Below, piece by piece: positions 3,105-63,734 of a DNA stretch of 64,000 nt. Numbering within the stretch: position 1 is the first letter of the stretch; each line of letters begins with the position of its first letter. The notes beneath the pieces were generated by a model. That model worked only from the letters and a program-made list of their open reading frames with translations. It was not told where the DNA came from and made no database searches. Where the stretch lies: the NCBI GenBank assembly GCA_022837635.1, contig JALHFY010000001.1, positions 454,512-518,511 on the forward strand, written 5' to 3'. Both the position numbers and the translations under genes were made by a program. The DNA comes from Candidatus Shapirobacteria bacterium. Lineage in GTDB: Bacteria > Patescibacteriota > Microgenomatia > UBA12405.

Positions 3105-4973
3105 ATGAGTTCTTTTAGTAGAATAGTGCGAAGAATATTTTTAGTAACGTTACTGTTGATGATGATTAGCCCGGTACCGGCTCAAGCGGTTAATGATTTT
3201 AGTAATGATTTCAGTGTCGTTGGCTTATATCGTTTAGAGTCGGGTGCCTTAACTACGAACAATTCTCCTGTCGTGGGATGCGGTGGTGCCAATTCACTAA
3301 TTAATTCATCAAATTCTGTTACCGCCAATACTTCAGCTAAAGAGGGTAATTATTCTGGATCTTTTGTTCGAGCTAATAGTGCTTATTTATACCAAGATGA
3401 TGCTAATTTATGTTCCCAATTTCCCGGTAAGTCGGGCACCAGTAACACCAGCTTCGCCATCTCAATGTGGTTTAAACTTAACTCCCTACCTTATCCAAGC
3501 GTTTACACATTAATATCAAAGGGTAGTCCTGGACAAAGATCATTCCTTTTAAGATATGACGGTGACGGCTTAGTCATGTATATCGGATCTGAGAATCGTA
3601 ATATCGGTTCAGTTGCTCTTTCTACAGATAATTGGTATCACTTGGGTTTGAGTTACAATGCTTCAAACAAATCTTTGATTAGCAAGCTGGTTCAAGAAGA
3701 TGGCACGGTCATAGCGAACGCGTCTATAACATATAATACGACTATGTCTCCACAGACTGGACCCTTTGCCATTGGCTCAGCCTATAATGGTGTTTCATTT
3801 AATGATTTTTTTGATGGTTTGATGGATGAGGTGGTGATTTTCAATACACCCAAAACCATCGCGGATTTTGATAATATCCGCAAGGGAAACTACGTGGCAC
3901 TTAATCCTCCCACACTTTCCAGTCCCATTAATGGGTCTAGCTCTGTGGCTACGGATACCGATTTAAGCTGGACTGACACCAACACCGACCCCAATGAAAC
4001 CGGTTATTCTGTTTGTATTGGCACTTCAAATACCTCTCCTCCGGCCAATTGTACTACCACTGCGGTTGGTACCACTTCAGTGTCAGCAGCTACAGCTTTG
4101 GGTTCCGCATTGAGTGAGGGGGCCACATATTATTGGACTGTTAGAGCATTGGGAGACAATTCGATTATTGCTGACAGTTCTTATGCCGACAATTACAGCT
4201 TTTCTACTACCGCACCACCAACTCCGACTCCGACTCCTACCCCAACCCCGACGCCAACCCCGACTCCCACTCCCACTCCTACACCAACTCCGACACCAAC
4301 TCCAGTTCCACCAACCTCAACTCCCACTCCGACGCCGACACCAACTCCGACTCCTATGCCTACCTCAACTCCGACACCCATGCCAACTTCAACCCCAACT
4401 CCGACTCCGACCCAAGCTCCAGTTCATCAGCCTGTAAGTGTGTCTTCACCGCCAAGTTACAGTAGTTTTACCTGTACTGATGCCAGACCTTTGTTTAAGT
4501 CTGATTTATTTCAAATAAATACTACCTATAATTCAGCCAAACTGTTCTTTACTCCACTGGCTGATACCAATCAATATTTCATTAGTTTTTCCACTAATCC
4601 CGATGCTGAGAAACATGGAGAACAAGTTACTCTTCTTAGAGAGGGAGTTCAAAGTCATAGTATTTATTTCTTAAAACCAAATACCACTTACTATGTTAAA
4701 GTCAGGGGTCAAAATGGCTGTGCCACCGGAGATTGGAGTAATATTATGAAATTTAAGACTAATCATCAGGTTTATTACAAAAATTTCCCCGCAGTCAGTG
4801 TCAATACCTCATTGTCTAATTTAGTGACCAAACAACCAAAAATATCGTCCACGACTAAGACTACTCCAACACCCACTGTAGTTGCTCCAAAAGCTACTGC
4901 TGTTCCCACCGCTCCACCACCAATTAAAGATCAGCCGAAACCCAAGAAGTGTTTCCTTTGGTGGTGTTGGTAG
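3105..4973 (+). CDS. Secreted surface protein: signal peptide, LamG/concanavalin-like jelly-roll domain, FN3-like region, long (PT)n linker, C-terminal domain ending in a Lys/Pro-rich stretch then CFLWWCW
   Basis: N-terminal [28 protein letters not shown]. LamG-like ...[13 protein letters not shown]. About 70 residues of PTPTPT. Terminal [11 protein letters not shown]. Confidence 0.7.
4207..4413 (+). repeat. Hexanucleotide-type tandem repeat (ccNacN)n encoding the (Pro-Thr)n linker
   Basis: actccgactccgactcctaccccaaccccgacgccaacccc... Near-perfect 6-nt periodicity over about 200 nt. Explains spurious ORFs 4114..4437(+) and 4193..4381(-). Confidence 0.85.
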
Positions 4974-23994: not shown

Positions 23995-24789
23995 TTAAGC
24001 CGTTGGGGTGGGATTAGGCTGGTTGGTACCAGGCATTAGATTGCCTGATTTTTCCACATTTTCAATAGGTGTGGCTTCAACCGGAGGAGTAAAGGCAACT
24101 TGGGTGGCTCGCAAACAAAGGGCACCGGCTTCAAAGGTTTCCGGAGAAACGTTGACACTAAAGGATTGAGTGGCTACACGAAGACCAATTAACAGATTCT
24201 TGGCGACTTCAGGATCCATTTCCAAATTAAGTAAAGGTAAAAGGAAGGTTAAAATTTCGGAAAAAGGAGCATCGGGATCAAAAACAGTCGCTTTAGCCCA
24301 AAGTTTTTGGGATTGAGTGGGAGTAATTAAAACCCAGTTACCTTGATTGACAATGGAGGCTTTTTCTCCCAAAACTGACTCATCACCAAAGATAAAAGAT
24401 AAATCGGCACTAGCAGCATTGTTGTTGATTTGGATTTGATTGGTTTCCACTTTGGCAGCACCGGATTTGGTTTTGACCACCAAATTTAGACGACCACCGT
24501 CATCATTGTAAGAAACAGCTTCAATTTGATCGATAGGATAATCCAAAGATAAGACTAAATCGGAATTACTATAAGTGTCAGTCAACATCTCTAAACCACC
24601 AAGTTTTTGATAATTTTGATCAGGTTTTTGAGGACAAAAAACAGTCACCTGTTTACCCGATTTTTTCAGAGATAAGGCCAAAGCTAAGGCCGAGGCCAAA
24701 CCATCAACCGATAAAGTTGGAACCGCCACTAAAATACTTTTGGCGGTGGACAGCAAATTGTTGATTTCAGTAACGTTGTAGTTTTTCAT
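23995..24789 (-). CDS. NrnA-like DHH/DHHA1-fold protein with degenerate catalytic motifs
   Basis: Sits at the infB-(rbfA/nrnA/truB)-rpsO synteny position. ILVAVPTLSVDGLASALALALSL and EVAKNLLIGLRVATQSF parallel NrnA blocks (IILHRHVRPDPDAYGS... and AxxLxxGIxxDTGxF). The DHH/DHHA1 metal-binding His/Asp residues are replaced. Confidence 0.45.
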   Translation of the reverse strand: MKNYNVTEINNLLSTAKSILVAVPTLSVDGLASALALALSLKKSGKQVTVFCPQKPDQNYQKLGGLEMLTDTYSNSDLVLSLDYPIDQIEAVSYNDDGGRLNLVVKTKSGAAKVETNQIQINNNAASADLSFIFGDESVLGEKASIVNQGNWVLITPTQSQKLWAKATVFDPDAPFSEILTFLLPLLNLEMDPEVAKNLLIGLRVATQSFSVNVSPETFEAGALCLRATQVAFTPPVEATPIENVEKSGNLMPGTNQPNPTPTA

Positions 24790-26219
24790 TTCTTATAGGC
24801 TATTATACCATCTCCGACCTTAAAGTCAACATAGGGTTTAAAGGTCATACCGCACTCATTACCAGCCTTGACTTTATCGACCACATCCTTACCTTGGCGA
24901 ATACCTTCAACAATAGTGTTTTTGTGAATTTGATCGTCACGCATCAAATGGACAGTATCGCCTTTGGTGATTTCACCCTTGGTAACTTTAAGTCCGGCAA
25001 TACGAACCTTATTAATCTTAAATTCGGCAATAATAGTCCCCTCGCCTAGGATAGTGTCTTCAATGGTCGGATCAAGCATTTTGAGAACTTGGGCTTGGAT
25101 ATTTTCAATAATTTCGTAAATAATTTTGGATTCAATAATAGTCACCTTTTCGTTGTCGGCAAGATTTCTGATGGTTTTACTGACCGGAACATTAAAGGCA
25201 AAAAGTTGGGCATGACCGGTTTTGGCGGCGATAATATCGTTGTCATTGACTGGACCGACTCCGGAACTGATAATTCTGACATCATCACTAAGACTGCCTT
25301 TGAGAGCCTCCAGAGTACCTTCAACGTCGGCTTTAAGAACAATATGAAGTTGGGGATTGTCAATATCGACGGCAGCATCAGTATTAGTACTAGAAGAACT
25401 TTTTTCTATTTCGTGAGGAGTGGCAGTCAGTACGGAACCAACCATAGGCACAGAGGTAAAACCTAGAATTTCTACGGGAGTGGCAGGACCAGCTTCGGTG
25501 ATATTTTTACCCTCGGAATTAACCAAAGCTTTAACTTTAACCGGAGTGGTATCAATGAAGAATTGGTCACCAACGCGCAGAGTACCTTGTTTGACGATAA
25601 CTGAGGCTAAAGGACCACGTTGATTATCTAGGCGAGATTCAATTACGACAGCTTCTAGGTCTTTATCCGGTTCTGCCTTAAGTTCCATGATATCGGCATT
25701 AAGTAAGATTAATTCCAAAAGTTTGTCAATACCTTCACCAGTTTTACCGGAAACCGGAACCACAGCAATTTGACCACCGTAATCCTCAGGAACCAGATCC
25801 ATTTCTACCAATTGACCTTTGACCATATCAGGATTGCGGGTATCAAGATCGAATTTGGTCAAGGCGACAATGACCGGTAAATTATTATTTTTAATCTCTT
25901 TGATACATTCTTTGGTCTGGGCCATAACACCATCAGTAGCGGAAATGACCAAGACAACAATATCGGTGACATTGGCACCACGGGAACGCATGGCGCAAAA
26001 AGCGGCATGACCGGGCGTATCGATGAAGGTAATCAGACGTGGACCTTCTTTGGTATCAACTTCAGTTTGATAGGAGGAAATATGTTGAGTAATACCACCG
26101 GATTCCTTTTGAGCCACCCTAGCATGACGAATTTTATCCAAAAGAGTGGTTTTACCATGATCGATATGACCCATGACGGTAACAATAGGCGGACGAAATT
26201 TAGTAGTGTTTTGAGTCAT
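24786..26219 (-). CDS. infB: Translation initiation factor IF-2 (short form, G domain to C-terminus)
   Basis: RPPIVTVMGHIDHGKTTLLDKIRHARVAQKESGGITQHI (G1). DTPGHAAF (G3). VALTKFD (G4). 477 aa. Confidence 0.9.
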   Translation of the reverse strand: MTQNTTKFRPPIVTVMGHIDHGKTTLLDKIRHARVAQKESGGITQHISSYQTEVDTKEGPRLITFIDTPGHAAFCAMRSRGANVTDIVVLVISATDGVMAQTKECIKEIKNNNLPVIVALTKFDLDTRNPDMVKGQLVEMDLVPEDYGGQIAVVPVSGKTGEGIDKLLELILLNADIMELKAEPDKDLEAVVIESRLDNQRGPLASVIVKQGTLRVGDQFFIDTTPVKVKALVNSEGKNITEAGPATPVEILGFTSVPMVGSVLTATPHEIEKSSSSTNTDAAVDIDNPQLHIVLKADVEGTLEALKGSLSDDVRIISSGVGPVNDNDIIAAKTGHAQLFAFNVPVSKTIRNLADNEKVTIIESKIIYEIIENIQAQVLKMLDPTIEDTILGEGTIIAEFKINKVRIAGLKVTKGEITKGDTVHLMRDDQIHKNTIVEGIRQGKDVVDKVKAGNECGMTFKPYVDFKVGDGIIAYKK

Positions 26220-27440: not shown

Positions 27441-28301
27441 TTATAAACCTAACTCTTTAACCAGGTCTTTTTGACGGGAGGTGAGGCGGGAAGGAATAGT
27501 AATATTCAGGCGAATGTAAAAATCGCCAACACCATAACCGGTAACATTTTTAATACCTTTACCGCGGAGACGAACCAAGGTACCGGGTTGGGTTCCGGCT
27601 TTAACTCTAACTTTAAGAGTACCGGTCAGAGTGGGGACTTCGATAACATCTCCCAAAATAGCCTGGGTTAAGGTAATAGTTTGATTAACAAAGACATCGT
27701 TGCCATCGCGACGGAAAATTTTGTCAGGTAGAACGTCAATATAGAGATTAAAATTAGTGAATTTAATCCGTTGACCATCATCAACTCCGGCCGGAATTTT
27801 GATTTTTTTAGCTTTACCATCAATTTCAACTTCTTTTTCAACACCTAGGGCGGCTTCTAAAAAAGTTAATTGGAGTTTATAAGTGGGCACTTGGCGTCGA
27901 GCTTGACCGCCAAAGGAGGCACCACCCATACCAAAAAATTGTTCAAAAATATCAAAAGGGTTGGAAAAACCGCCAAATTGGAAATCAGCTCCCTGACCAC
28001 CGCCACTTTGCCAGGTAAAGTGATAAGGACCGCTTTGTTGACTGTAGGTGTTGCCGCCAAAATTACCGCCACCTTGGCTGGGATCGAAAGCGGCATGACC
28101 AAACTGATCGTAGGCGGCACGTTTTTGGTCGTTACTAAGGACTTCGTAAGCTTCGTTGATTTCTTTGAATTTTTCTTCAGCATCAGGCGATTTATTTTTG
28201 TCGGGATGCCAAGCCATAGCCTGTTTACGATAGGCCGATTTGATATCGTCTTTGGTAGCATTCTTAGAAACTCCTAGAGTTTCATAAAAATCTTTTTTCA
28301 T
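27441..28301 (-). CDS. dnaJ: DnaJ-class co-chaperone, type II / CbpA-like (J domain + G/F region + CTDs; no CxxCxGxG zinc finger)
   Basis: [36 protein letters not shown]-rich stretch. No Cys repeats. Confidence 0.85.
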
Positions 28302-28409: not shown

Positions 28410-30323
28410 TTAAGCGACGACTTCGCCTTCTTCGGCGGTTTCTTTTTTATCGTCAGAGGCTTTGGCTTCTTCCGCTTGAGGAGCTTCCGGTTGGGGACCA
28501 GCGGTCTCGGGACCGGGTTGCTGTTGACTATAGACAGCTTGACCGATGACTTGCATCATCTGATTAAGTTCGTCGATGTACTTGTCATAATCAGCTTTGT
28601 TGCCATCAGCTTTTTCCAAAAGCTCTTTACCTTCTTTGAGCTTATCCTCAATTTTACTTTTGTCTTCGGTTTTAACCTTGTCGCCAAATTCTTTGAGAGA
28701 TTTCTCAGAATTGAAGATGGTAGCATCAAGGCGGTTTTTGGATTCCACCAAATCATGCTTTTCGCTGTCTTCACGAGCGTGGAGCTCGGCATCATTTTTC
28801 ATCTTTTCCACTTCCTCATCAGAGAGGTTGGTGGCATTTTGAATAGTGATTTTTTGCTCTTTGCCGGTACCTTTATCTTGGGCAGAAACAGAGAGAATAC
28901 CGTTACTGTCAATATCAAAGGTAACTTCAATTTGGGGAGTGCCACGGGGAGCCGGAGCAATACCGTCGAGGATAAAACGACCTAAAGACTTGTTGTCGGC
29001 AGCCATGGGCCGTTCACCCTGGAGAACATTGATTTCCACCTGTGGTTGATTGTCACTATAAGTGGTGAAAATCTGAGATTTCTTGGTAGGAACGGTGGTA
29101 TTTCTATCGATTAAAGGAGTGCGAATGGAACCGGCGGTTTCGATACCCAGAGTTAAAGGGGTAACGTCAAGAAGGACAATATCTTTAACTTCACCGGTTA
29201 AGACAGCTCCTTGAACCGCGGCACCGATAGCGACAACTTCATCAGGATTGACAGTCGTGTTGGGCTCTTTGCCAAAAAAATCTTTAACCACTTCGATGAC
29301 TTTGGGCATTCTGGTCATACCACCAACCATGACTACGTCGGTAATGTCATTTTTAGTAATACCAGCATCTTTAAGACATTTTTCTACCGGTCCGATACTT
29401 TTTTGGATCAGATCATCAACCAGTTTTTCCAACTCAGAACGAGTCAGCTTGGCAGTTAAGTGTAGTGCCTCTTTATCTTTTTGAGTGATAAAGGGGAGAT
29501 TGATATCAGTTTCACCGGTACTAGACAGTTCGATTTTGGCTTTTTCGGCGGCCTCACGAATACGTTGAAGGGCTTGAGGATCTTTGCTCAAATCGACACC
29601 GTGTTCTTTTTGGAATTTATCCAATAACCACTCCACAATTTTGTGATCGAAATCATCACCACCTAAAAAGGTATCACCGTTGGTGGCTTTAACTTCAAAG
29701 ACACCGTCACCGATTTCCAAAATGGAAATATCAAAGGTACCACCACCTAAATCATAAACCGCAACTAAACCTTTTTTCTTTTTATCCAGACCATAGGCCA
29801 AAGCGGAGGCAGTTGGTTCGTTGACAATTCTTTTAACAATAAGACCGGCAATTTCTCCAGCCTGTTTGGTGGCTTGACGTTGAGAATCGTCAAAGTAAGC
29901 AGGTACAGTAATTACCGCATCGGTGACTTTTTCACCCAGATATCTTTCAGCATCAGCCTTGGCTTTTTGCAGAATCATGGCAGAAATTTCCTGAGGGGTA
30001 TAAGTTTTACCTTCGACTTCGACAGCGGCAACTTTGTCCTTACCAGCCACAATTTTATAAGGAGCAATTTTTTCAGTCTTTTTGACTTCGGGATCATCAA
30101 TACGACGACCCATTAAACGCTTGATACTAAAAATAGTATTTTGGGGATTGAGAACCATTTGGCGCTTGGCCAAATCCCCGACTAGTTTTTTAACCGGTTC
30201 CACTACAGAGGGAATAGTGTTTCTACCCTCAGCAGTGAGAATAACTTTAGGAGTACCACCTTCCATAACAGCGACACAGGAGTTGGTAGTACCTAAATCA
30301 ATACCAATAATTTTGTTTGCCAT
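28410..30323 (-). CDS. dnaK: Molecular chaperone DnaK (Hsp70)
   Basis: [23 protein letters not shown]...DLGGGTFD... Confidence 0.95.
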
Positions 30324-30354
30324 ATTTTTTATTTTTTTAATTGTTAATTAATAA

Positions 30355-30810
30355 TTAATTTTTGCCCACGGCCACTTGGGCGGGACGTAAACATTGGCCG
30401 TTTAATAAATAACCACGTTTTTTAACTTCCACAACCTTGTTGTCAGGACCTTTGACCACTTCAATACACTCCATGATCTGGGGATCAAAATCGGCATTTT
30501 TAAGGTTGATTTCTTCCAGGCCTTGATTTTTGAGCACATTTTCAAATTTGTCAATTGCAATTTTGAGACCAGGATCAGGTAAATGTTTGTAAGTAAGTAA
30601 AAACTCATCTAAAACTTCTAACATTTGACTGACAAAACCGGTGATAGCTAAAGTAGCAAAAACTTGACGATGATCTTCGTGCCTTTTTTGTAAATTGGCA
30701 TAATCAGCTAAAGATCGGCTAAGTTTTTCCTGTAACTCTTTGATCTGAGTTTCCAGTTTGGCTACAGAAGACGGATTTTTAGACTTGTTTTTATTTTTTG
30801 AATTGTCCAT
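30355..30810 (-). CDS. grpE: Nucleotide exchange factor GrpE. The start is trimmed to Met48 of the track ORF so that it does not overlap hrcA.
   Basis: MDNSKNKNKSKN...LADYANLQKRHEDHRQ...VVEVKKRGYLLNGQCLRPAQVAVGK. Confidence 0.8.
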   Translation of the reverse strand: MDNSKNKNKSKNPSSVAKLETQIKELQEKLSRSLADYANLQKRHEDHRQVFATLAITGFVSQMLEVLDEFLLTYKHLPDPGLKIAIDKFENVLKNQGLEEINLKNADFDPQIMECIEVVKGPDNKVVEVKKRGYLLNGQCLRPAQVAVGKN

Positions 30811-30817
30811 AAAAAAG

Positions 30818-31558
30818 TTAACCTGTAATGGTAGAGATAAGGTCAGCAAAATAATCGACCACCGGAATGATGACCGGATAGCGAACCCGAGCCGGACCGA
30901 CAACTCCCAAAATACCACGATGAGGACCGGCTTGATAAGTCTGATAAACAAAGGAACAAGGTTCCAAATGTTCCATACCTAAATCCTCACCGACCAAGAG
31001 ATGGATCATCTGGGAAGATGGTTCACTGGTATTAACACCAGCTTTATTAATAATGTCAAACCAAAAATCAGGGTCATCTAAAAGTGATAAAACTGTCTTG
31101 GTGACATCAATATTGTAAAATTCCGGTTCTTCCAATAAATTCGAGGAACCAGAACTGTAAATGGAGCCTTGATCAGTGGTGGCGATAGCCAAAGAACGAG
31201 TCTTTTGAGCCAGTTCTTTGGTAGTTTCTTTTAAGAGTTTGTCAAATTCATTACGGTAGTTCCAGACTCTTTCCTTGACACCAATTTCGTCACTGACGGA
31301 CATACTTTTAGGTGTCATTAGGTTTCTGACATAGTATTTCAGACCCATGGAGGTCGGTGACCGACCAGAAGATAGATGGCCTTTTTTCAAAAAGCCGAGT
31401 TGGGTTAAAGCCGCCATTTCATTTCTAATGGTAGCTGAGGAAATACCTAGATTATATTTACGCTCAAGGGTTTCCGAGCCGACAGGCTGAGCCGAGTCGA
31501 TAAATTCTTCGGTAACACACTTGAGAATTTTGATTTGACGCTGAGTTAAATCTGCCAT
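30818..31558 (-). CDS. hrcA: Heat-inducible transcriptional repressor HrcA. The ATG start is at 31558, whereas the track ORF starts at an upstream TTG.
   Basis: MADLTQRQIKILKCVTEEFIDSAQPVGSETLERKYNLGISSATIRNEMAAL. Start abuts the CIRCE element. Confidence 0.85.
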   Translation of the reverse strand: MADLTQRQIKILKCVTEEFIDSAQPVGSETLERKYNLGISSATIRNEMAALTQLGFLKKGHLSSGRSPTSMGLKYYVRNLMTPKSMSVSDEIGVKERVWNYRNEFDKLLKETTKELAQKTRSLAIATTDQGSIYSSGSSNLLEEPEFYNIDVTKTVLSLLDDPDFWFDIINKAGVNTSEPSSQMIHLLVGEDLGMEHLEPCSFVYQTYQAGPHRGILGVVGPARVRYPVIIPVVDYFADLISTITG

Positions 31559-31565
31559 TAGCACT

Positions 31566-31594
31566 ATAATACTATTAGCACTAACTGATGTCAA
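31566..31594 (-). promoter_or_regulatory. Sigma70-like promoter embedded in CIRCE: TTGACA (plus 31589-31594) - 17 nt - TATTAT (plus 31566-31571)
   Basis: Minus-strand read: TTAGCACTTGACAtcagttagtgctaatagTATTATagtgctaATGGCAGAT. The -10 ends about 10 nt before the hrcA ATG. Confidence 0.45.
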
Positions 31595-31601
31595 GTGCTA
31601 A
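31575..31601. promoter_or_regulatory. CIRCE operator (TTAGCACTa-N9-aAGTGCTAA), with an extra upstream TTAGCACT half-site at 31558-31565
   Basis: ttagcactAACTGATGTCaagtgctaa matches consensus TTAGCACTC-N9-GAGTGCTAA. A second direct half-site lies 9 nt away and overlaps the hrcA ATG. Confidence 0.85.
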
Positions 31602-31602
31602 T

Positions 31603-32664
31603 TTAGGCTTTGATTTGAAGTTGATCTGACTCAGAACCAAGCTGAATTTTATCGATAACTTTCTGTAATCTATTGTTTCTAGTTTGAGAAACGACATTAT
31701 ATTGTTTTTGTAAATTCTCGATTTTATCACCAAATTTATTAAACTCGTTGCTGAATTTTTGATATTCAATGGCAAAGACTTTGATTTGGGTGATAATCCC
31801 CTGGATATTTTTTTGGAAACGGAAATTGTCATAAGCCTGGCGCACCATGCGTAAAATGGCGGTAAAAGAAAATGGCCCAGCTAGAACAATTTTTTTATTA
31901 AAAGCCTCATCTAAAAGGTGAGGGAATTTTTCATAGATGAAGGAGAAAATCATTTCGTTGGGGATAAAGACAATGACAAAATCAACAGTATTTTTTTCCG
32001 GGTCAATGTAATCGCGACTGGAAACCTGATTGATTTTATCTTTGATATCTTTTTCAAATTCTTTAAGATATTGTTTTTTTTGCTCAGGATCGTCAGTCTC
32101 GCTCATTTTAACAATGGCGCTATAAGGAAATTTGGAATCAATATTGATTTTGGTTTTGTCGGGAAGATAGAGAGTAAAATCAGGACGACCTGAACCTTCA
32201 GATTCTTGTTTGGTGTAATCAGTACCGATAACAAAACCAGCTTGTTTAAGTAAATCTTCGGCTACCTTTTCCCCAAAGGCACCGCGCATTTGATTATTAG
32301 AGAGGGTTTTTTTGAGACCTTCAGTAGTGACAGAGAGTTGTTCGGTAATTTTACGGTTATTCTCGATGGCTTCACGTAAACCATTAAAAGAACCGACACG
32401 TTCTTTTTCGGCTGACTCTAATTTGCTTTGGTTTTTATCCAGTTCGGTTAAAACTTGGTTGACCATTTTTTCAATAGAATCTTTTTTATTTTTAAGATCG
32501 ACATTAATTTGCTCAGTCTTATCGCCTAATTTTTCATTGGCAATGGTGATAATCGCGTCAATGGTTTTTGGATCCAGAGAGGCGGTGGTGGGTTGACGAG
32601 AGGTAACAATAAAGTAAATGATTCCCAAAAGAATCAGAGCCAGAAGAATATAAACTAGAGTCAT
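31603..32664 (-). CDS. rmuC: DNA recombination protein RmuC
   Basis: N-terminal TM, long coiled coil, C-terminal ...FVIVFIPNEMIFSFIYEKFPHLLDEAFNKKIVLAGPFSFTAILRMVRQAY (RmuC domain). Confidence 0.8.
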   Translation of the reverse strand: MTLVYILLALILLGIIYFIVTSRQPTTASLDPKTIDAIITIANEKLGDKTEQINVDLKNKKDSIEKMVNQVLTELDKNQSKLESAEKERVGSFNGLREAIENNRKITEQLSVTTEGLKKTLSNNQMRGAFGEKVAEDLLKQAGFVIGTDYTKQESEGSGRPDFTLYLPDKTKINIDSKFPYSAIVKMSETDDPEQKKQYLKEFEKDIKDKINQVSSRDYIDPEKNTVDFVIVFIPNEMIFSFIYEKFPHLLDEAFNKKIVLAGPFSFTAILRMVRQAYDNFRFQKNIQGIITQIKVFAIEYQKFSNEFNKFGDKIENLQKQYNVVSQTRNNRLQKVIDKIQLGSESDQLQIKA

Positions 32665-32667
32665 GAT

Positions 32668-33099
32668 TTATTTTACCCCGGTGGTGCCAAAGCCGCCACG
32701 ATTAGGATTGGGCATGGTGTCAACTTCTTCAAAATCAAAATGTTCACATTTGATTAAAATTAGTTGACAAAGACGAGTGCCCTTATCAATTTTAACTGTC
32801 TTATCGGTAAAATTTCTAACGGCAAAATGATACTCATCTTCATTGCCACAATAATCCCGATCCATGATACCGACACCATTGATGCCATGAATACCTAGTT
32901 TGTGAGTGGAACTACGTGGGGCTAAGAGAATAAAATAGCCATCGGGAATTTTGATAGCCACATTCATGGGAATATAGGCAATTTCTTTGGCTTTAATTTC
33001 CATGTCTAACCGACTGTAAAGATCAACAGCAACCGCCCCTGGGGTTTTATGAATTGGTAGCGGCAGACTTTTATCGAAACGTTTGATAGTTAATTTCAT
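32668..33099 (-). CDS. dut: dUTP diphosphatase (dUTPase / dCTP deaminase-dUTPase superfamily)
   Basis: ...TPGAVAVDLYS...GINGVGIMDRDYCGNE...RGGFGTTG. Confidence 0.8.
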   Translation of the reverse strand: MKLTIKRFDKSLPLPIHKTPGAVAVDLYSRLDMEIKAKEIAYIPMNVAIKIPDGYFILLAPRSSTHKLGIHGINGVGIMDRDYCGNEDEYHFAVRNFTDKTVKIDKGTRLCQLILIKCEHFDFEEVDTMPNPNRGGFGTTGVK

Positions 33100-36000
33100 T
33101 TGAAATATTCGTCAAACAAATCATGAAGATGGTCTTTGTCGTCGCAAGAGGGATTGGGGGTGAAGTTAAGGGCGAGGATTTTTTGGAAGACTTCTTTAAT
33201 TTGTTTTTTTAAGTCAGCGGTATCTTGTTTAGTAAGAGGATAATTTTTTCTGACAAAGGTGTCAGCTTTGTTTTTCTCAATAAAATCAATGGTGCCGGAA
33301 ACGACTTGGTAAGGAAAACTTTTAGCCTCATCACAGAGAAGTTTATAGAAAACCAATTGACGAAAGTAGTCCCCTGTCCGACTCAACTGAGGACCTTTGG
33401 AATCAGGTTTGCCGGTTTTATAATCCACCACATTAACCTGATTGCCGGATAAAAATTCAATTTTGTCAATTTTTCCGGTCAAAGGAATGTCGCCGAGATA
33501 AACATTTTTAAGGCGGAAATCATGCTCGGTGAGACAACGACCGTTGAAAGAATCTTGATAGTGATGATAATAATTAGTCAAAACTTGTCGACCGTGATTT
33601 TGTAAATCAATAAAATCTTGATTTGAGAGATTTTCTCTTTTTAAGTTACTTTCAAAAATAGACAAAAATTTATCCACAGAAATAAGTTGATTTTTTTGTT
33701 TATAAATTTGAGTCAGATAAGCCAGAGCGCCATGGACGGCGGTACCAAAAGAAAGAGATTTGGCTTTTGGTGAGGGTAGACGGAGAATGGTTTTGAAAAA
33801 GAAACAAAGAGGGCATTTCAAGTAAGAATTTAGATGAGTAATATTGAAACGATACTGAGTCGATAAATAGTGAGATAGATAAGCGGAGAGATCGACAGAT
33901 TTTAACTGAGGAATATTTTGCGTAAAAGAAAATTCTAAAGATTTTTTTTCAATTTCGGGAGTAGAGGGAATGATTTCAATTCTTTGGGGATCAATTTCTT
34001 TGATAAAACGAGTGGCTAATTGTTCTTTGCCGGTTTCGGAAAAACGGGTGTAAGAGAGGTAAATTTGTTTTTCAGCACGAGTGAGGGCGACATAAAAAAG
34101 ACGACGATCTTCCTCTAAAATGTCATTATCCAAATCGTATTGGAGAATACCTAAAGGTAGGGTAATCAGAGAGCGACTAACTTGAGAATCATCCCATCTA
34201 GAAGAGAGAGTCCTAATAATAAAAACATGTTCGAATTCCAAACCCTTGGCCTTATGAACGGTCATTAGGCGCAATGAATTGTCTATATCTGATTGAAGCA
34301 CTGGAGCATCAAGAGAAAGATTGTTTTCTAAAAGAAGAGCTATTTTTTGGACCCAATCAAAGAGAGAAATTTTGTTGACTAAAAGACTTTGTTTGAGGTG
34401 GGAATAAAGAGTATTAAGTTGTTTGAGAAGAGAGAGATTTTTGGATTTTAAAACATAATCTAAAAAGTGAAAACGGCGAATAATCAGGTTAAACAACTCA
34501 TCAGCAGGTAAGTTATGGGCATCTTTGAGAGTGTCGGCAACTTGCTGATTAAAATTATCAAAAACCGGGTCCTCTAAAATTGCTTCCGATAATTTTAATT
34601 GTTCTTTGGCAACACGGCGGAAAAGTTTATAGAGATGAAGACTGTCAAAACCCAGGAAATTAAAAGACAAGAGTTCACCTAAATAAGAATCATTTTGAGG
34701 GTCGGATAAATATTTGAAGAGAGTCAGTAATTGTTTAATTTCCAGAGTTTCTAAAATATTAATGGCATCAGAGCGGAGATAAAGTAAATTATGTTGAGTT
34801 AAAAAAGGTAACAGATCGTTGACGTCAGTATTCTTTCGATAAAGAACGGCAATATTTTTAGGGGTGACTCCGGAATCAACCAATTGCTTTATCTGGTCAG
34901 CAATCCAATAATTTTCTTCCAGACTGTTATTGGCGGTAAAGAGATTAATGGGATTGGGATCATAATCTTTGGTGGCCGTGAGAGACTTATCGATATTATC
35001 TATGTATTGACTAATTCGGCTGTGATTATGGTTAATCACATCAGTAGAGGAATCTAAAATTAACTGATGAGAACGATAATTGTTTTTTAGAACGATTAAA
35101 GTTAAATCTTTTTTGTATTTTTCATGAAATTTGTAAATATTTTCGATGCTGGCACCTTGGAAACGGAAAATAGATTGATCGTCGTCACCAACCACAAAAA
35201 TATTGGGGCGAGGAGAATCTTGGGTCAGTAAATTTAAAATTTCCATTTGGGAAGAATTAGTATCTTGAAATTCATCGACCAAGAGATAATGGTAAGTTTC
35301 TTGATAAGTAGACAAAAGTTCCGGGTGGGTTTTAAGAGCCGTAATAACCCACAGAATCATATCTTCGTAATCATAAAAACCACGAGTGGACAAAGTTTGT
35401 TGATATTGTTTGTAAATCAGAGATAAATCACGGATTTTGTCTAGAATTCCAGTATATTTTTCAACAAATTTTTTGAAATCTTTTTTTAAATCAGATAAGG
35501 AGAGATGGCCTTGTTTGAAGAGATCAAGAAAATAATTGAGACGGACTTGATAAAGAGGTTGGGAATGGAGAGAGTCAGCCGCCGTTTTGATGGCATTAAC
35601 GATATCATTTTCAGTTTTTTTGGAAGCGCGAAGAGATTGAACTGTTTGTAAAAAAGGCTGAGTGATAGTAGCAAAATCGATGGTATCTTGGAGAAGTTCG
35701 TCTAAACGAGCAGGAGAGATATTTTCTTTTTTAAGAGTGGAGATAGCTCCTAAAATATCCTTTTGATAAAGATAAGGAGCGGCGATATTTTTGAAAGGAC
35801 TGGTGGTAGGTAAAGCATCAATTAGAGCACGGATAATTTCGATTCTAGTGACATCGTCAATAGCTTCGGATTCAGTGGTAGTAGTTAAAAAATATTCAGG
35901 ACGGTCTTTGATAATAGAATTACAAAAAGCGTGGAAGGTGGCGATACGGACGCTATAAGCGGTAGGACCAATCAGAGAAATGAGGCGTTCACGCATGTTG

Positions 36001-36209
36001 AGAGCGGCATTTTCAGTAAAGGTCAAACAGAGAATATTACTGGGATTGACTTGGGTTTCTTTTAAGATTTTACCTATTCTTAGGGCAATAGTTTGGGTCT
36101 TACCAGTACCGGCACCAGCAATAACCATGACTGGACCTTCAATGGTATCCACCGCTTTTTTTTGCTGTGAATTGAGTCGTTGATATTCTTTAGAATATGA
36201 ATCCCCCAT
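33096..36209 (-). CDS. UvrD/AddA-type ATP-dependent helicase fused to a C-terminal PD-(D/E)xK (RecB/Cas4-like, Cys-containing) nuclease domain
   Basis: VMVIAGAGTGKTQTIALRI (Walker A). ...LLVDEFQDTN. C-terminal CPLCFFFKTILRL...VVDYKTGKP...QLVFYKLLC. Confidence 0.8.
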   Translation of the reverse strand: MGDSYSKEYQRLNSQQKKAVDTIEGPVMVIAGAGTGKTQTIALRIGKILKETQVNPSNILCLTFTENAALNMRERLISLIGPTAYSVRIATFHAFCNSIIKDRPEYFLTTTTESEAIDDVTRIEIIRALIDALPTTSPFKNIAAPYLYQKDILGAISTLKKENISPARLDELLQDTIDFATITQPFLQTVQSLRASKKTENDIVNAIKTAADSLHSQPLYQVRLNYFLDLFKQGHLSLSDLKKDFKKFVEKYTGILDKIRDLSLIYKQYQQTLSTRGFYDYEDMILWVITALKTHPELLSTYQETYHYLLVDEFQDTNSSQMEILNLLTQDSPRPNIFVVGDDDQSIFRFQGASIENIYKFHEKYKKDLTLIVLKNNYRSHQLILDSSTDVINHNHSRISQYIDNIDKSLTATKDYDPNPINLFTANNSLEENYWIADQIKQLVDSGVTPKNIAVLYRKNTDVNDLLPFLTQHNLLYLRSDAINILETLEIKQLLTLFKYLSDPQNDSYLGELLSFNFLGFDSLHLYKLFRRVAKEQLKLSEAILEDPVFDNFNQQVADTLKDAHNLPADELFNLIIRRFHFLDYVLKSKNLSLLKQLNTLYSHLKQSLLVNKISLFDWVQKIALLLENNLSLDAPVLQSDIDNSLRLMTVHKAKGLEFEHVFIIRTLSSRWDDSQVSRSLITLPLGILQYDLDNDILEEDRRLFYVALTRAEKQIYLSYTRFSETGKEQLATRFIKEIDPQRIEIIPSTPEIEKKSLEFSFTQNIPQLKSVDLSAYLSHYLSTQYRFNITHLNSYLKCPLCFFFKTILRLPSPKAKSLSFGTAVHGALAYLTQIYKQKNQLISVDKFLSIFESNLKRENLSNQDFIDLQNHGRQVLTNYYHHYQDSFNGRCLTEHDFRLKNVYLGDIPLTGKIDKIEFLSGNQVNVVDYKTGKPDSKGPQLSRTGDYFRQLVFYKLLCDEAKSFPYQVVSGTIDFIEKNKADTFVRKNYPLTKQDTADLKKQIKEVFQKILALNFTPNPSCDDKDHLHDLFDEYFK

Positions 36210-36237
36210 TATTTGTATTTTAGCTTAAAATATAGCC

Positions 36238-36843
36238 ATGGAGAAACCAAATATATATTTTGATTTGGACAGAACTTTATTTGACACGGTTAAGTCAGGA
36301 CAAAATTATAGAGCCGCTTTAGAGAAAATTGGAATTGGCACGGAAAAGTATGAGCAAATTTACAGTAATTATAAATCTACATTAGAATCATCAACAGATT
36401 TTGATCCAAAAAAATTATTGGATTTATTGACAAAAAATTTCAATGTAAGTCCAGAAAAATTGGCTCAAAGCTTTTGGGAGAAAGGTAATTTTGTGTTATT
36501 TCCAGAAACAATGAAAACACTGGAAAAATTAAGTCAGAACAATGATTTAAGATTATTTTCGGAAGGAAATAAGAATTGGCAAAAGGGAAAAATTGAAAAA
36601 ACGGAAATTGGAGAATTTTTTGATTTAGAAGCAAGTTTAATCGAAAAACGAAAATTAAGTCCAGAGGTAATTGCAGAAATTGTCCAAGGTGCTATGGTGA
36701 TTGATGACAAAAAAGAGGTAATAAAACAACTAGCCAGTCAAAGACCAGATTTACATTTAGTTTGGATAAATAGAAACAATGAAGAGGAATTGACAGGTCA
36801 AAATATTAGAACGATTAGAGATTTGAGTGAATTACTTGAGTAA
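36238..36843 (+). CDS. HAD-superfamily hydrolase
   Basis: IYFDLDRTLFDT (DxD motif I). ...MVIDDKKEVI (motif IV-like). Confidence 0.6.
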   Translation: MEKPNIYFDLDRTLFDTVKSGQNYRAALEKIGIGTEKYEQIYSNYKSTLESSTDFDPKKLLDLLTKNFNVSPEKLAQSFWEKGNFVLFPETMKTLEKLSQNNDLRLFSEGNKNWQKGKIEKTEIGEFFDLEASLIEKRKLSPEVIAEIVQGAMVIDDKKEVIKQLASQRPDLHLVWINRNNEEELTGQNIRTIRDLSELLE

Positions 36844-63095: not shown

Positions 63096-63390
63096 TTTAT
63101 GACTTTAGTTTGGCGCCTTTGATAATTAACGACTTCGCCACAACTAAGGACAGAGGTAGTATATCATTTCTTCTCAGCCCAGGGGGGATAAGGTTGGTCA
63201 TAATAGGCTCGAGTGGATGAAGTACGACTGTTTCTGAGAATCATTCTGTGTGGATCTGGTTCAACAGAAAATTGAGCGGAAGGAAGAGATGGGAGAGAAG
63301 AAAGTTTTTCTGGTCGACAAAAAAGATTGTTTAAGGTTTTAATTCCATTAAAAATAGGGCGAATGATAGGGAGATGTTCTCGTTTCATTG

Positions 63391-63464
63391 TAGGCATGCA
63401 TGGATTCGAACCATGGACCACCGACTTATAAGATCGGTGCTCTAACCAACTGAGCTACATGCCC
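63391..63464 (-). tRNA. tRNA with anticodon UAU (reads AUA; Ile). No encoded CCA. G1-U72 pair.
   Basis: Minus strand: GGGCATG-TA-GCTC-AGTTGGTTA-GAGC-A-CCGAT-CTTATAA-GTCGG-TGGTC-CATGG-TTCGAAT-CCATG-CATGCCT-A. Cloverleaf folds by hand. Loop CTTATAA puts TAT at positions 34-36. Confidence 0.7.
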
Positions 63465-63491: not shown

Positions 63492-63565
63492 TGGTACAGT
63501 AGCAAGGGCGGGACTTGAACCCGCGACCCCGACGTTATGAATGTCGTGCTCTAACCAACTGAGCT
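63492..63565 (-). tRNA. tRNA with anticodon CAU (elongator Met or Ile2-type). No encoded CCA. G1-U72 pair.
   Basis: GGCAAGG-TA-GCTC-AGTTGGTTA-GAGC-A-CGACA-TTCATAA-CGTCG-GGGTC-GCGGG-TTCAAGT-CCCGC-CCTTGCT-A. Confidence 0.7.
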
Positions 63566-63624
63566 ACCTTGCCTTGATTAAAGTTACGGCATAGCAAGCT
63601 GACCATAACTTAGGGAATTATATC

Positions 63625-63661: not shown

Positions 63662-63734
63662 TGGTTGCGGGGCTGGGAGTTGAACCCAGCCTGTGAGATT
63701 ATGAGCCTCACGTGCAGCCGTACACTACCCCGCA
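63662..63734 (-). tRNA. tRNA with anticodon CAU and genomically encoded 3' CCA (Met, fMet or Ile2-type)
   Basis: TGCGGGG-TA-GTGT-ACGGCT-GCAC-G-TGAGG-CTCATAA-TCTCA-CAGG-CTGGG-TTCAACT-CCCAG-CCCCGCA-A-CCA. Confidence 0.65.

Follow-up and report, generated by a model that had tools for sequence, protein, structure and literature searches.

Genes and control region of the hrcA operon

The window analysed here, i.e. the whole 64,000-nucleotide stretch of DNA, carries on its minus strand a chaperone operon preceded by rmuC. Downstream of rmuC (31603..32664, 353 aa; Pfam RmuC, E 1.5e-66) lie, on the same strand, hrcA (30818..31558, 246 aa; Pfam HrcA, E 3e-18), grpE (30355..30810; Pfam GrpE, with its extent taken from translation and sequence), dnaK (28410..30323; Pfam HSP70, E 1.8e-250) and dnaJ (27441..28301, 286 aa; Pfam DnaJ and DnaJ_C), the last encoding a DnaJ limited to a J domain and a C-terminal domain. 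No groESL genes were found in the window or in the retrieved flanks of related loci. The start of grpE is ATG 30810, which lies 7 nt beyond the hrcA stop and has no Shine-Dalgarno motif upstream; an alternative start at TTG 30951 was rejected, as it would overlap hrcA by 134 nt, whereas ATG 30810 fits.

The N-terminal winged-helix region of the HrcA protein aligns by profile comparison to residues 14-99 of 1STZ (E about 1e-17). It falls about 90 residues short of 1STZ, the Pfam profile goes unmatched over its first ~100 positions, and an AlphaFold2 model of the 246 residues (mean pLDDT 53.7) is confident in the winged-helix part only, its C-terminal part being unreliable. Homologues among the 120 matches listed, which carry the names Shapirobacteria, Woesebacteria or Microgenomates, are 241-257 aa long (nearly all 241-249) and begin with M-x-D/E-L-T-Q-R-Q. 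These lengths and N-termini argue against the hrcA start at TTG 31594 given in the open reading frame list, which was rejected also because this TTG is the beginning of the -35 hexamer described below. The next in-frame methionine of hrcA is residue 48, within the DNA-binding domain.

Read directly on both strands, the hrcA control region (31601-31556, minus strand) has the form TTAGCACT-TGACA-tcag-TTAGTGCTAA-tag-TATTAT-AGTGCTA-ATG. Only 44 nt separate the rmuC stop from the hrcA ATG, and they contain a promoter and three CIRCE half-sites, interleaved. The rmuC stop codon TAA (31605-31603) is followed by a single spacer nucleotide (31602), and not by two as the first-pass annotation had it, and then by arm 1, TTAGCACT (31601-31594). 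The last base of this arm is also the first T of the -35 hexamer TTGACA (31594-31589), which was recognized by promoter scan and by its conservation in relatives; the hexamer, which had been placed in the CIRCE spacer, does not fall wholly within it. Then follows a quasi-palindromic middle element, TTAGTGCTAA (31584-31575), which is shared between two overlapping inverted repeats, being the right arm of the one (O1) and an imperfect left arm of the other (O2). The -10 hexamer TATTAT (31571-31566) begins exactly 17 nt past the -35 hexamer and lies inside the O2 spacer. Arm 3, the third half-site and right arm of O2, AGTGCTAA (31565-31558), ends on the A of the hrcA ATG (31558-31556), leaving 7 nt between the -10 box and the start codon in place of the approximately 10 nt first noted.

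O1 is the inverted repeat that had been recognized from the outset at 31575-31601. Direct reading bears it out as TTAGCACT-N11-AGTGCTAA (31601-31575, no mismatches), in which arm 1 and the last 8 nt of the middle element, AGTGCTAA, form a perfect 8+8 repeat with an 11-nt spacer; in terms of 9-mers it is TTAGCACTT-N9-TAGTGCTAA, with 8 of 9 consensus matches in each arm. Against the CIRCE consensus TTAGCACTC-N9-GAGTGCTAA, O1 scores 16/16 over 8-bp arms with the 11-nt spacer and O2, TTAGTGCT-N11-AGTGCTAA (31584-31558), scores 14/16, its two mismatches falling at core positions of the left arm (TTAGTGCT vs TTAGCACT). On its sequence, O2 may thus be a weak or dead site in the window. If 31559 is taken as +1, O1 spans -42 to -16, with its left arm abutting and overlapping the -35 hexamer, and O2 spans -25 to +2, a segment that takes in the -10 box and the predicted transcription start and runs as far as the A of the ATG.

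Such an arrangement is not readily expected by chance. At up to 3 mismatches, TTAGCACT-N11-AGTGCTAA is matched twice in the 64 kb of the window, both times in the hrcA control region, with 0.18 matches expected and two reached in 1 of 100 shuffles. The window has four TTAGCACT octamers, three of them inside the 44-nt gap, and TTAGCA-N15-TGCTAA, at up to one mismatch, has no window match outside the hrcA control region. The proposed embedded promoter likewise stands: TTGACA-17-TATTAT matches at 11 of 12 positions and is the top match in a scan of 30300-33200, which found no better promoter inside rmuC. An independent metagenome contig (L081), encoding an HrcA 98% identical to that of the window, has the same 75-nt upstream sequence without a single difference, and the arrangement is hence not an assembly artefact. 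No terminator was found between rmuC and hrcA, so read-through transcripts could supply part of hrcA expression; the inverted repeat itself was considered as an rmuC terminator and rejected, for it forms a hairpin but lacks a U-tract and is AT-rich.

Conservation and origin of the operators

We compared the region among some 160 related Candidatus Shapirobacteria loci, of which 159 promoters represent 123 distinct sequences; since these loci are relatives of one another and in part redundant, the counts exceed the number of independent observations. The first-pass annotation had suggested this comparison of the spacer, and the CIRCE-like repeat proves to be conserved: it is kept at the same position across the ~160 loci, which, together with the gene order and the Pfam identification of HrcA, upholds its assignment to the hrcA-grpE-dnaK-dnaJ operon. 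All 159 loci have a TAnnAT -10 box at the 17-nt spacing, which reads exactly TATTAT in 124 of them, and 157 have the -35 hexamer TTGACA. Between the -10 box and the ATG lie 9 nt in 140 loci; the others have 7 nt (8 loci) or 10-12 nt (11 loci). Positions within the motifs are conserved to at least 90%, versus 30-50% for spacer positions. An rmuC homologue lies 5' of hrcA on the same strand in 125/160 loci, and no CIRCE-like repeats away from hrcA were detected within +-3 kb of the gene across the ~160 loci. The design of the control region is, in short, strongly conserved among relatives.

The operator that is conserved, though, is O2 and not the perfect repeat, which had been taken for the main CIRCE. 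Among the 123 distinct sequences, the O2 left arm is TTAGCAGTC in 67 and the canonical TTAGCACTC (as an exact 9-mer) in 33, and the right arm is TATTGCTAA in 94, giving the family-wide CIRCE consensus TTAGCA[G/C]TC-N9-TATTGCTAA. The commonest operator of the family, TTAGCAGT-N11-ATTGCTAA, matches the canonical consensus at 14 of 16 positions, equal to O2 of the window. O1 was found in nine loci only (the window, L081, L001, L003, L082, L084, L085, L009 and L086), which are monophyletic with a bootstrap of 100 on a tree of the rmuC flank. Within this clade the middle element is a perfect palindrome, TTAGCGCTAA, in L001, L084 and L085, and the O2 left arm carries the two core substitutions (TTAGTGCT) in the window, L081, L003, L082 and L009; outside it, the same position is occupied by TTAGCAGTC or TTAGCACTC. 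The core TGCTAA of arm 3 is invariant in all nine members, in which four unconstrained spacer positions all vary.

These alignments indicate that O2 is the positional homologue of the relatives' single CIRCE and occupies the ancestral position, and that O1 is a derived copy moved 17 bp upstream, a lineage-specific novelty of single origin. In almost all relatives, the single CIRCE has its left arm between the two hexamers, contains the -10 box in its spacer and the inner part of its right arm, and reaches with that right arm over the predicted transcription start to end 1 nt before the ATG. The lineage of the window has gained in its upstream flank, 17 bp further up, a second and perfect CIRCE. 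The arm added there, TTAGCAC, runs directly into the -35 hexamer, and the old left arm has turned into the (quasi-)palindrome TTAG[T/C]GCTAA, serving O1 as its right and O2 as its imperfect left arm. The third half-site, correctly seen as overlapping the hrcA ATG, is on this account not an extra addition; it is the retained right arm of O2.

The history of the promoter seems to differ from that of the genes it serves, as O1-type loci are intermixed with standard loci on both an HrcA protein tree and an hrcA-dnaK nucleotide tree. A pair of loci explains this conflict with the rmuC-flank tree by recombination at the promoter. L082, of the O1 type, and L083, of the standard type, share 94% identity in hrcA and 97% downstream, but just 70% in their promoters, and upstream of these they have unrelated flanks. 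Both operator designs are thus served by nearly identical HrcA proteins, and the apparent promoter swap supports the view that both designs are functional.

Predicted repression, probable leaderless transcription and competing readings

We consider it highly probable that 31601-31556 constitutes the entire control region of the hrcA-grpE-dnaK-dnaJ operon in a Candidatus Shapirobacteria (Microgenomates, CPR) genome, a sigma-70-type promoter interleaved with HrcA operators and giving rise to a leader of 0-1 nt. A strong promoter of this type is intertwined with sites for HrcA, the operon's own product, which by homology would bind these repeats. An HrcA dimer in either register would block RNA polymerase, covering the -35 hexamer and spacer when on O1 and the spacer, the -10 box and +1 when on O2, jointly -42 to +2; as O1 and O2 share 10 bp, the two registers are probably mutually exclusive. 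That HrcA would occlude its own promoter in this geometry is suggested by analogy with Campylobacter jejuni and Helicobacter pylori, in which HrcA footprints of 30-40 bp extend across the core promoter and the start site (PMC7464140). Upon HrcA inactivation, transcription would initiate at 31559 or 31558, and the resulting hrcA mRNA, with a leader of 0-1 nt, would be translated without a Shine-Dalgarno sequence, apparently the rule in this genome. In the canonical model, HrcA is inactivated once GroEL is titrated by unfolded proteins.

The predicted transcription start (31558..31559, minus strand) follows from the promoter geometry and from box-to-ATG distances genome-wide. Placing +1 at 31559 would give a 1-nt leader with canonical -12..-7 and -35..-30 hexamers, and placing it at 31558 a truly leaderless mRNA, so the message probably begins with the start codon or with the base preceding it. 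The 44-nt gap 5' of hrcA holds no Shine-Dalgarno-like motif, and the start codon is ATG. Shine-Dalgarno motifs were found upstream of none of the window's genes, apparently including genes internal to operons, and Shine-Dalgarno-like 4-mers precede 2 of 49 genes compared with 19 of 203 internal-ATG controls. A TANNNT box lies 3-9 nt 5' of the ATG in 18 of the 25 window genes with an upstream gap of at least 20 nt. In pooled statistics from which 80 hrcA copies were excluded, the box distances of 416 non-hrcA genes peak at 5-6 nt, with 12-14% per position versus about 1% in controls. In the leaderless bacterial genomes of GeneMarkS-2 group C, the Pribnow box lies 6-8 nt from the start (PMC6028130), and the signature of that group, a -10 box set a short and constant distance ahead of the genes, is found here as well. 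Leaderless transcription would hence fit the genome at large. For hrcA, the box and the ATG are 7 nt apart (9 nt in most relatives), whereas 5-6 nt is the commonest distance across the genome, making a 1-3-nt leader as likely as a true 5'-AUG. The literature searched offered nothing on leaderless or Shine-Dalgarno usage in Microgenomates, and the sole item found on the question in CPR bacteria is the loss of the anti-Shine-Dalgarno motif in some Parcubacteria (PMC9297842).

Going further, we propose a joint reading that we hold only tentatively and rate at somewhat below an even chance. It states that a single HrcA dimer toggles between O1 and O2 via the shared palindromic arm, that strains exchange the promoter-operator cassette as a unit through recombination with the upstream flank, and that in Shapirobacteria, and perhaps in Microgenomates, most operon-first genes are leaderless with essentially no Shine-Dalgarno-led initiation. 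If the operator does work in two registers, higher occupancy would be obtained without lengthening the control region. If the leaderless part is true, hrcA would represent an extreme case in which promoter, operator and start codon form one 44-nt unit, and regulation would, by this fusion, necessarily take place entirely at the DNA level.

The two-register operator has to be weighed against the idea that O1 is the only working operator in this lineage and the third half-site a vestige of the ancestral CIRCE, in which case GCTAATG would be constrained not by HrcA, but as an initiating or early-transcribed region and leaderless start context. Such other constraints are plausible given that arm 3 overlaps both the predicted +1 and the ATG, and the two core substitutions in the O2 left arm in five loci, the window included, next to a perfect O1 point in the same direction. 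However, O2 of the window is as close to the canonical consensus (14/16) as the commonest operator of the family, the symmetric TTAGCGCTAA of three clade members looks like a compromise between two registers, and the TGCTAA core has stayed invariant in nine loci with variable free neighbours, all of which makes a mere vestige rather unlikely in our view. Occupation of all three half-sites simultaneously, by a dimer plus a monomer or by two dimers, would yield cooperative, switch-like repression across the whole promoter. The regular 19-bp distance between half-site centres would accommodate such an assembly, and an HrcA some 90 residues short of 1STZ could differ in oligomerization; yet the shared 10 bp would have to take two recognition helices on overlapping bases, the 17-bp offset places the registers on different helix faces, and the HrcA literature examined offers no precedent, leaving this an improbable solution.

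The premise common to these readings, that transcription starts at the embedded promoter, could be mistaken if the true promoter lay upstream, in rmuC or beyond, with CIRCE in a transcribed leader, like that of the Bacillus subtilis dnaK operon, and acting partly as mRNA structure, and with TTGACA-17-TATTAT being fortuitous. The missing rmuC-hrcA terminator would allow for this, and in a read-through RNA the CIRCE would fold into a hairpin of -18.8 kcal/mol (z -2.57). We give this scenario hardly any credence, as both hexamers and the 17 nt between them show next to no change in their pattern across the 159 loci, including those with no adjacent rmuC or with an unrelated upstream flank; moreover, 30300-33200 offers no better match, and a Shine-Dalgarno motif for an internal start is absent.

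Comparison with known systems

The locus offers a clean textbook case of repressor and operator in CPR/Patescibacteria, a group in which transcriptional regulation is almost undescribed. For an uncultured group, it yields a confident consensus for the promoter (TTGACA-17-TATTAT), a predicted start of transcription, and a family consensus for CIRCE that can be used in regulon searches. The natural operator variants (single, shifted and shared-arm), which come with near-identical repressors, are suited to in vitro binding work, and the leaderless, Shine-Dalgarno-free signature, if genome-wide, bears on gene-start annotation and translation initiation in CPR bacteria.

In B. subtilis, transcription starts before CIRCE and runs through it. 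Here, by contrast, CIRCE is intertwined with both promoter hexamers and would be essentially untranscribed, and hrcA has no Shine-Dalgarno motif and a predicted mRNA with no 5' UTR; this would exclude a role for CIRCE at the RNA level in transcripts from the hrcA promoter. In other respects the hrcA-grpE-dnaK-dnaJ operon of B. subtilis resembles the one described here in gene order, repressor family, CIRCE consensus (TTAGCACTC-N9-GAGTGCTAA) and the encoding of its own repressor (Zuber & Schumann 1994, cited in PMC4245973, PMC7464140). The HrcA operators of C. jejuni and H. pylori share with ours the steric exclusion of RNA polymerase that is predicted here, in their case with a compact 30-40-bp footprint, although the promoters there are co-regulated by HspR, contain a single inverted repeat and produce leadered mRNAs (PMC7464140), whereas the hrcA control region has three half-sites and no HAIR/HspR element was seen in it. 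Chaperone promoters with more than one CIRCE are also known; as far as described, these double CIRCEs are two complete repeats, in contrast to the shared central quasi-palindromic arm here, with three half-sites rather than four.

Outside the HrcA family, the cI repressor of phage lambda expressed from PRM is a leaderless, autoregulated repressor whose operators overlap its own promoter and whose mRNA begins at the AUG. Lambda has three full operators, cooperative binding and activation, and its repressor belongs to a protein family unrelated to HrcA; the likeness would suggest that hrcA control is purely transcriptional. With regard to gene starts, a close counterpart is GeneMarkS-2 group C (Actinobacteria, Deinococcus-Thermus), in which, as here, a Pribnow box lies near many gene starts, in a survey that makes no mention of CPR lineages (PMC6028130); unlike group C as described, Shine-Dalgarno motifs seem to be missing here from internal operon genes too. 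Autoregulation by HrcA and CIRCE, operators over core promoters and double CIRCEs have all been described previously, and the hrcA control region is a well-conserved, essentially ordinary case of this known regulatory system; the lineage-wide leaderless signature is a more notable side observation than the operator itself.

Anatomy of the control region and its operon

On direct reading, minus-strand positions 31605-31556 run TAA a TTAGCACT TGACA tcag TTAGTGCTAA tag TATTAT AGTGCTA ATG. The rmuC stop codon TAA (31605-31603) is followed after 1 nt, rather than the 2 nt of the first-pass annotation, by the left arm TTAGCACT (31601-31594) of a first operator, O1, the last T of which is also the first T of the -35 hexamer TTGACA (31594-31589). 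The right arm of O1, AGTGCTAA (31582-31575), completes a perfect 8+8 inverted repeat with the 11-nt spacer canonical for CIRCE, and lies within a 10-mer quasi-palindrome, the middle element TTAGTGCTAA (31584-31575). Exactly 17 nt after TTGACA stands the -10 hexamer TATTAT (31571-31566), directly followed by a third arm, a second AGTGCTAA (31565-31558), whose final A also opens the hrcA start codon ATG (31558-31556). The first 8 nt of the middle element and the third arm constitute a second operator, O2 (31584-31558), a 14/16 CIRCE match with the same spacing as O1 that was also picked up independently by pattern search. The earlier observation is thereby confirmed: its coordinates were correct, while the distance from the -10 box to the ATG shortens from about 10 to 7 nt.

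Chance does not explain this pattern. The CIRCE pattern search, allowing up to 3 mismatches, returned 2 matches in the window against 0.18 expected, three of the window's four TTAGCACT octamers fall inside these 44 nt, and TTAGCA-N15-TGCTAA with at most 1 mismatch had no further match in the 64 kb. TTGACA-17-TATTAT is the best sigma-70 match (11/12) within 30300-33200, and at the sequence level the system qualifies as HrcA/CIRCE joined to a sigma-70 promoter.

Pfam assignments give, in the direction of transcription, rmuC (31603-32664), hrcA (30818-31558; 246 aa), grpE (true start ATG 30810, 7 nt past the hrcA stop), dnaK (28410-30323) and dnaJ (27441-28301), with nusA and a short infB downstream of the chaperone genes; the window has a G+C content of 38%. 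The N-terminal winged-helix region of HrcA aligns with Thermotoga maritima 1STZ (residues 14-99, E 1e-17), and its closest relatives among the matches listed are 241-257 aa long, nearly all 241-249, and come, where a source is named, from Candidatus Shapirobacteria, Woesebacteria or Microgenomates MAGs. These relatives place the window in a CPR/Patescibacteria genome. The whole family is short compared with the 338 aa of the 1STZ chain. HrcA of the window has the winged-helix domain and matches the last ~115 positions of the Pfam HrcA profile but not its first ~100, and an AlphaFold2 model is confident for residues 1-60 only. DnaJ (286 aa) matches the Pfam J domain and C-terminal domain only, the zinc-finger domain not being matched, and IF2 (24786-26219), only 477 aa long, is missing its usual N-terminal extension, in keeping for both proteins with the protein shortening of CPR bacteria. 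Elsewhere in the window, among tRNAs at 63390-63464, 63499-63573 and 63662-63734, a tRNA-Ile with anticodon TAT adjoins two tRNAs with CAT anticodons; bacteria normally use a lysidine-modified CAU tRNA, and a tRNA-Ile(UAU) that reads AUA is unusual among them.

The family operator and the probable derivation of O1

The 75 nt upstream of hrcA were aligned for 80 species-representative genome loci and 80 metagenome loci, and by this comparison the hrcA control region is strongly conserved for a non-coding stretch. Many of the public MAG records with Shapirobacteria-type loci (L001, L003, L005, L006, L074 and others) are titled 'uncultured Gammaproteobacteria', 'Candidatus Methanoperedens' or 'archaeon', which are probably placeholder or wrong labels. 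The promoter design is kept across relatives, with TTGACA in 157 of 159 loci and a TAnnAT box at exactly 17 nt in all 159 (TATTAT in 124); the distance between the -10 box and the ATG is 9 nt for 140 loci, while 8 loci have 7 nt and 11 have 10-12 nt. The consensus reads tTTcCCtCTTGACAcc..TTAGCAgTC..tcTATTATAtTGCTAATATG. Of the 123 distinct promoter sequences, 67 have TTAGCAGTC as left CIRCE arm and 33 the canonical TTAGCACTC; as right arm, 94 have TATTGCTAA, 15 have TACTGCTAA and 11 have TAGTGCTAA. In all loci, CIRCE-like repeats are confined to the position upstream of hrcA. As aligned, the family operator is one single CIRCE, with its left arm within the -35/-10 spacer, the -10 box held by its spacer and inner right arm, and the right arm over the predicted transcription start. 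A C-rich block (TTcCCtC) at positions -8 to -1 before TTGACA is conserved in most Shapirobacteria hrcA promoters (L002-L160) and, unlike an UP element, is not A/T-rich.

Judged from the alignment, the counterpart of this operator in the window is O2. The half-site that had been described as extra is therefore real but no add-on, and the earlier interpretation, once the repeats are given these new roles, is supported. O1 occurs in nine loci only (the window, L081, L001, L009, L086, L003, L082, L084 and L085), in which TTAGCAC, the new CIRCE arm, stands where the C-rich block (TTACCCC or TTCCCTC) normally precedes the -35 hexamer and the old left arm TTAGCA[G/C]TC has become TTAGTGCTAA, TTAGCGCTAA (a perfect palindrome) or TTACTGCTAA. 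These loci form one clade with bootstrap 100 in a tree of the 900-nt rmuC flank, and our reading is that O1 had a single origin, in an ancestor with one CIRCE.

O1 and standard types are interleaved in trees of hrcA and of hrcA-grpE-dnaK, apparently because of recombination at the promoter. L082 (O1) and L083 (standard) are 94% identical in hrcA and 97% downstream (94-97% over hrcA-dnaK), whereas promoter identity is only 70% and the upstream flanks are unrelated, that of L083 lacking rmuC; L082 and L003, conversely, share 98% of the promoter and 88% of the flank, but only 86% of hrcA. A breakpoint at the hrcA promoter is seen between L082 and L083 (also L003 and L002), the promoter-operator cassette moving together with its upstream flank. 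In this natural experiment, both operator layouts appear to be served by essentially the same repressor. Throughout the O1 clade the third arm keeps its TGCTAA core unchanged, although each of the four free positions that follow the -35 hexamer varies, indicating that this arm is still constrained, either by HrcA or by a role as the initiation region. The 2-nt loss that puts the arm onto the ATG (CTAATATG to CTAATG) is found in at least three separate groups.

Predicted leaderless gene starts

The 7 nt from the -10 box in the window fit a predicted leader of 0-1 nt for hrcA, and the 9 nt of most relatives would give 1-3 nt; describing the mRNA as 'essentially leaderless' is fair, whereas 'exactly leaderless' is unproven. 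Shine-Dalgarno motifs are absent from all of the roughly 50 gene starts in the window, and SD-like 4-mers precede 2 of 49 genes compared with 19 of 203 controls at internal ATGs. The 49 genes gave 32 matches to TANNNT boxes that end 3-8 nt ahead of the ATG, where one gene may score at several distances, against ~4 expected; of the 25 genes with an upstream gap of at least 20 nt, 18 have such a box at 3-9 nt from the ATG. Examples are the starts at 3105+, 10848-, 13694-, 17357-, 33096-, 36238+, 59269- and 60884-, and several of these genes also have TTGACA-like -35 boxes at 16-18 nt. Among 416 genes of relatives, hrcA excluded, the box peaks sharply at 5-6 nt, and complete promoters scoring at least 9/12 concentrate at 5-8 nt. 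This box-to-start signature is that of leaderless 'group C' bacterial genomes, in which the Pribnow box and the gene start are 6-8 nt apart (PMC6028130), and suggests that genes of this Shapirobacteria genome are by default initiated without a leader; no description of this was found in the literature searched.

Within the operon, grpE and dnaK lack Shine-Dalgarno motifs and are preceded by AT-rich or very short gaps. The 28-nt gap (36210-36237) between a divergent AddA-like helicase-nuclease (33096-36209, minus) and a HAD hydrolase (36238-36843, plus) holds back-to-back TAAAAT boxes (36217-36222 minus, 36226-36231 plus), each 6-7 nt from its own ATG, which would place the -35 region of either promoter within the opposite gene. 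A TAAAAT box also precedes the rmuC ATG by 5 nt; it lies within the 3' end of the dUTPase gene (32668-33099), only 3 nt from the stop codon of that gene. Throughout this region, promoters therefore seem to lie within the ends of the genes that precede them.

Proposed repression and comparison with known systems

With +1 at 31559, the hexamers would occupy the canonical -35..-30 and -12..-7, O1 would span -42..-16 and O2 -25..+2, such that HrcA bound in either register should collide with RNA polymerase. Derepression would follow the usual HrcA logic, which is established for the family. The two registers share 10 bp and are therefore expected to be alternatives rather than co-occupied. The CIRCE would be practically untranscribed from the hrcA promoter, and the RNA-level role it has in leadered operons would therefore be inapplicable, except possibly in rmuC read-through transcripts; no terminator was found between rmuC and hrcA, where the junction RNA folds at -18.8 kcal/mol without a U-tract. 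The proposed collision matches Campylobacter jejuni and Helicobacter pylori, in which HrcA footprints of 30-40 bp cover the core promoter and transcription start, and HrcA is thought to work through steric interference (PMC7464140).

For CPR bacteria, the literature searched yielded no paper on either HrcA/CIRCE or leaderless initiation; the nearest report is that the anti-SD motif is missing from some Parcubacteria (PMC9297842). The significance of the system is modest, and would be greater only if a lineage-wide leaderless mode or a two-register operator proves true. Leaderless autoregulated repressor genes are classical, e.g. lambda cI. Operators over core promoters are likewise known (PMC7464140), as are two CIRCEs at one promoter, in the L. 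lactis dnaK operon (PMC1676014) and Streptomyces groES1/groEL2 (PMC13284173). What is particular to this control region is how far its elements are fused, the operator arms being interleaved with both hexamers and touching the ATG, and that the central arm is shared.
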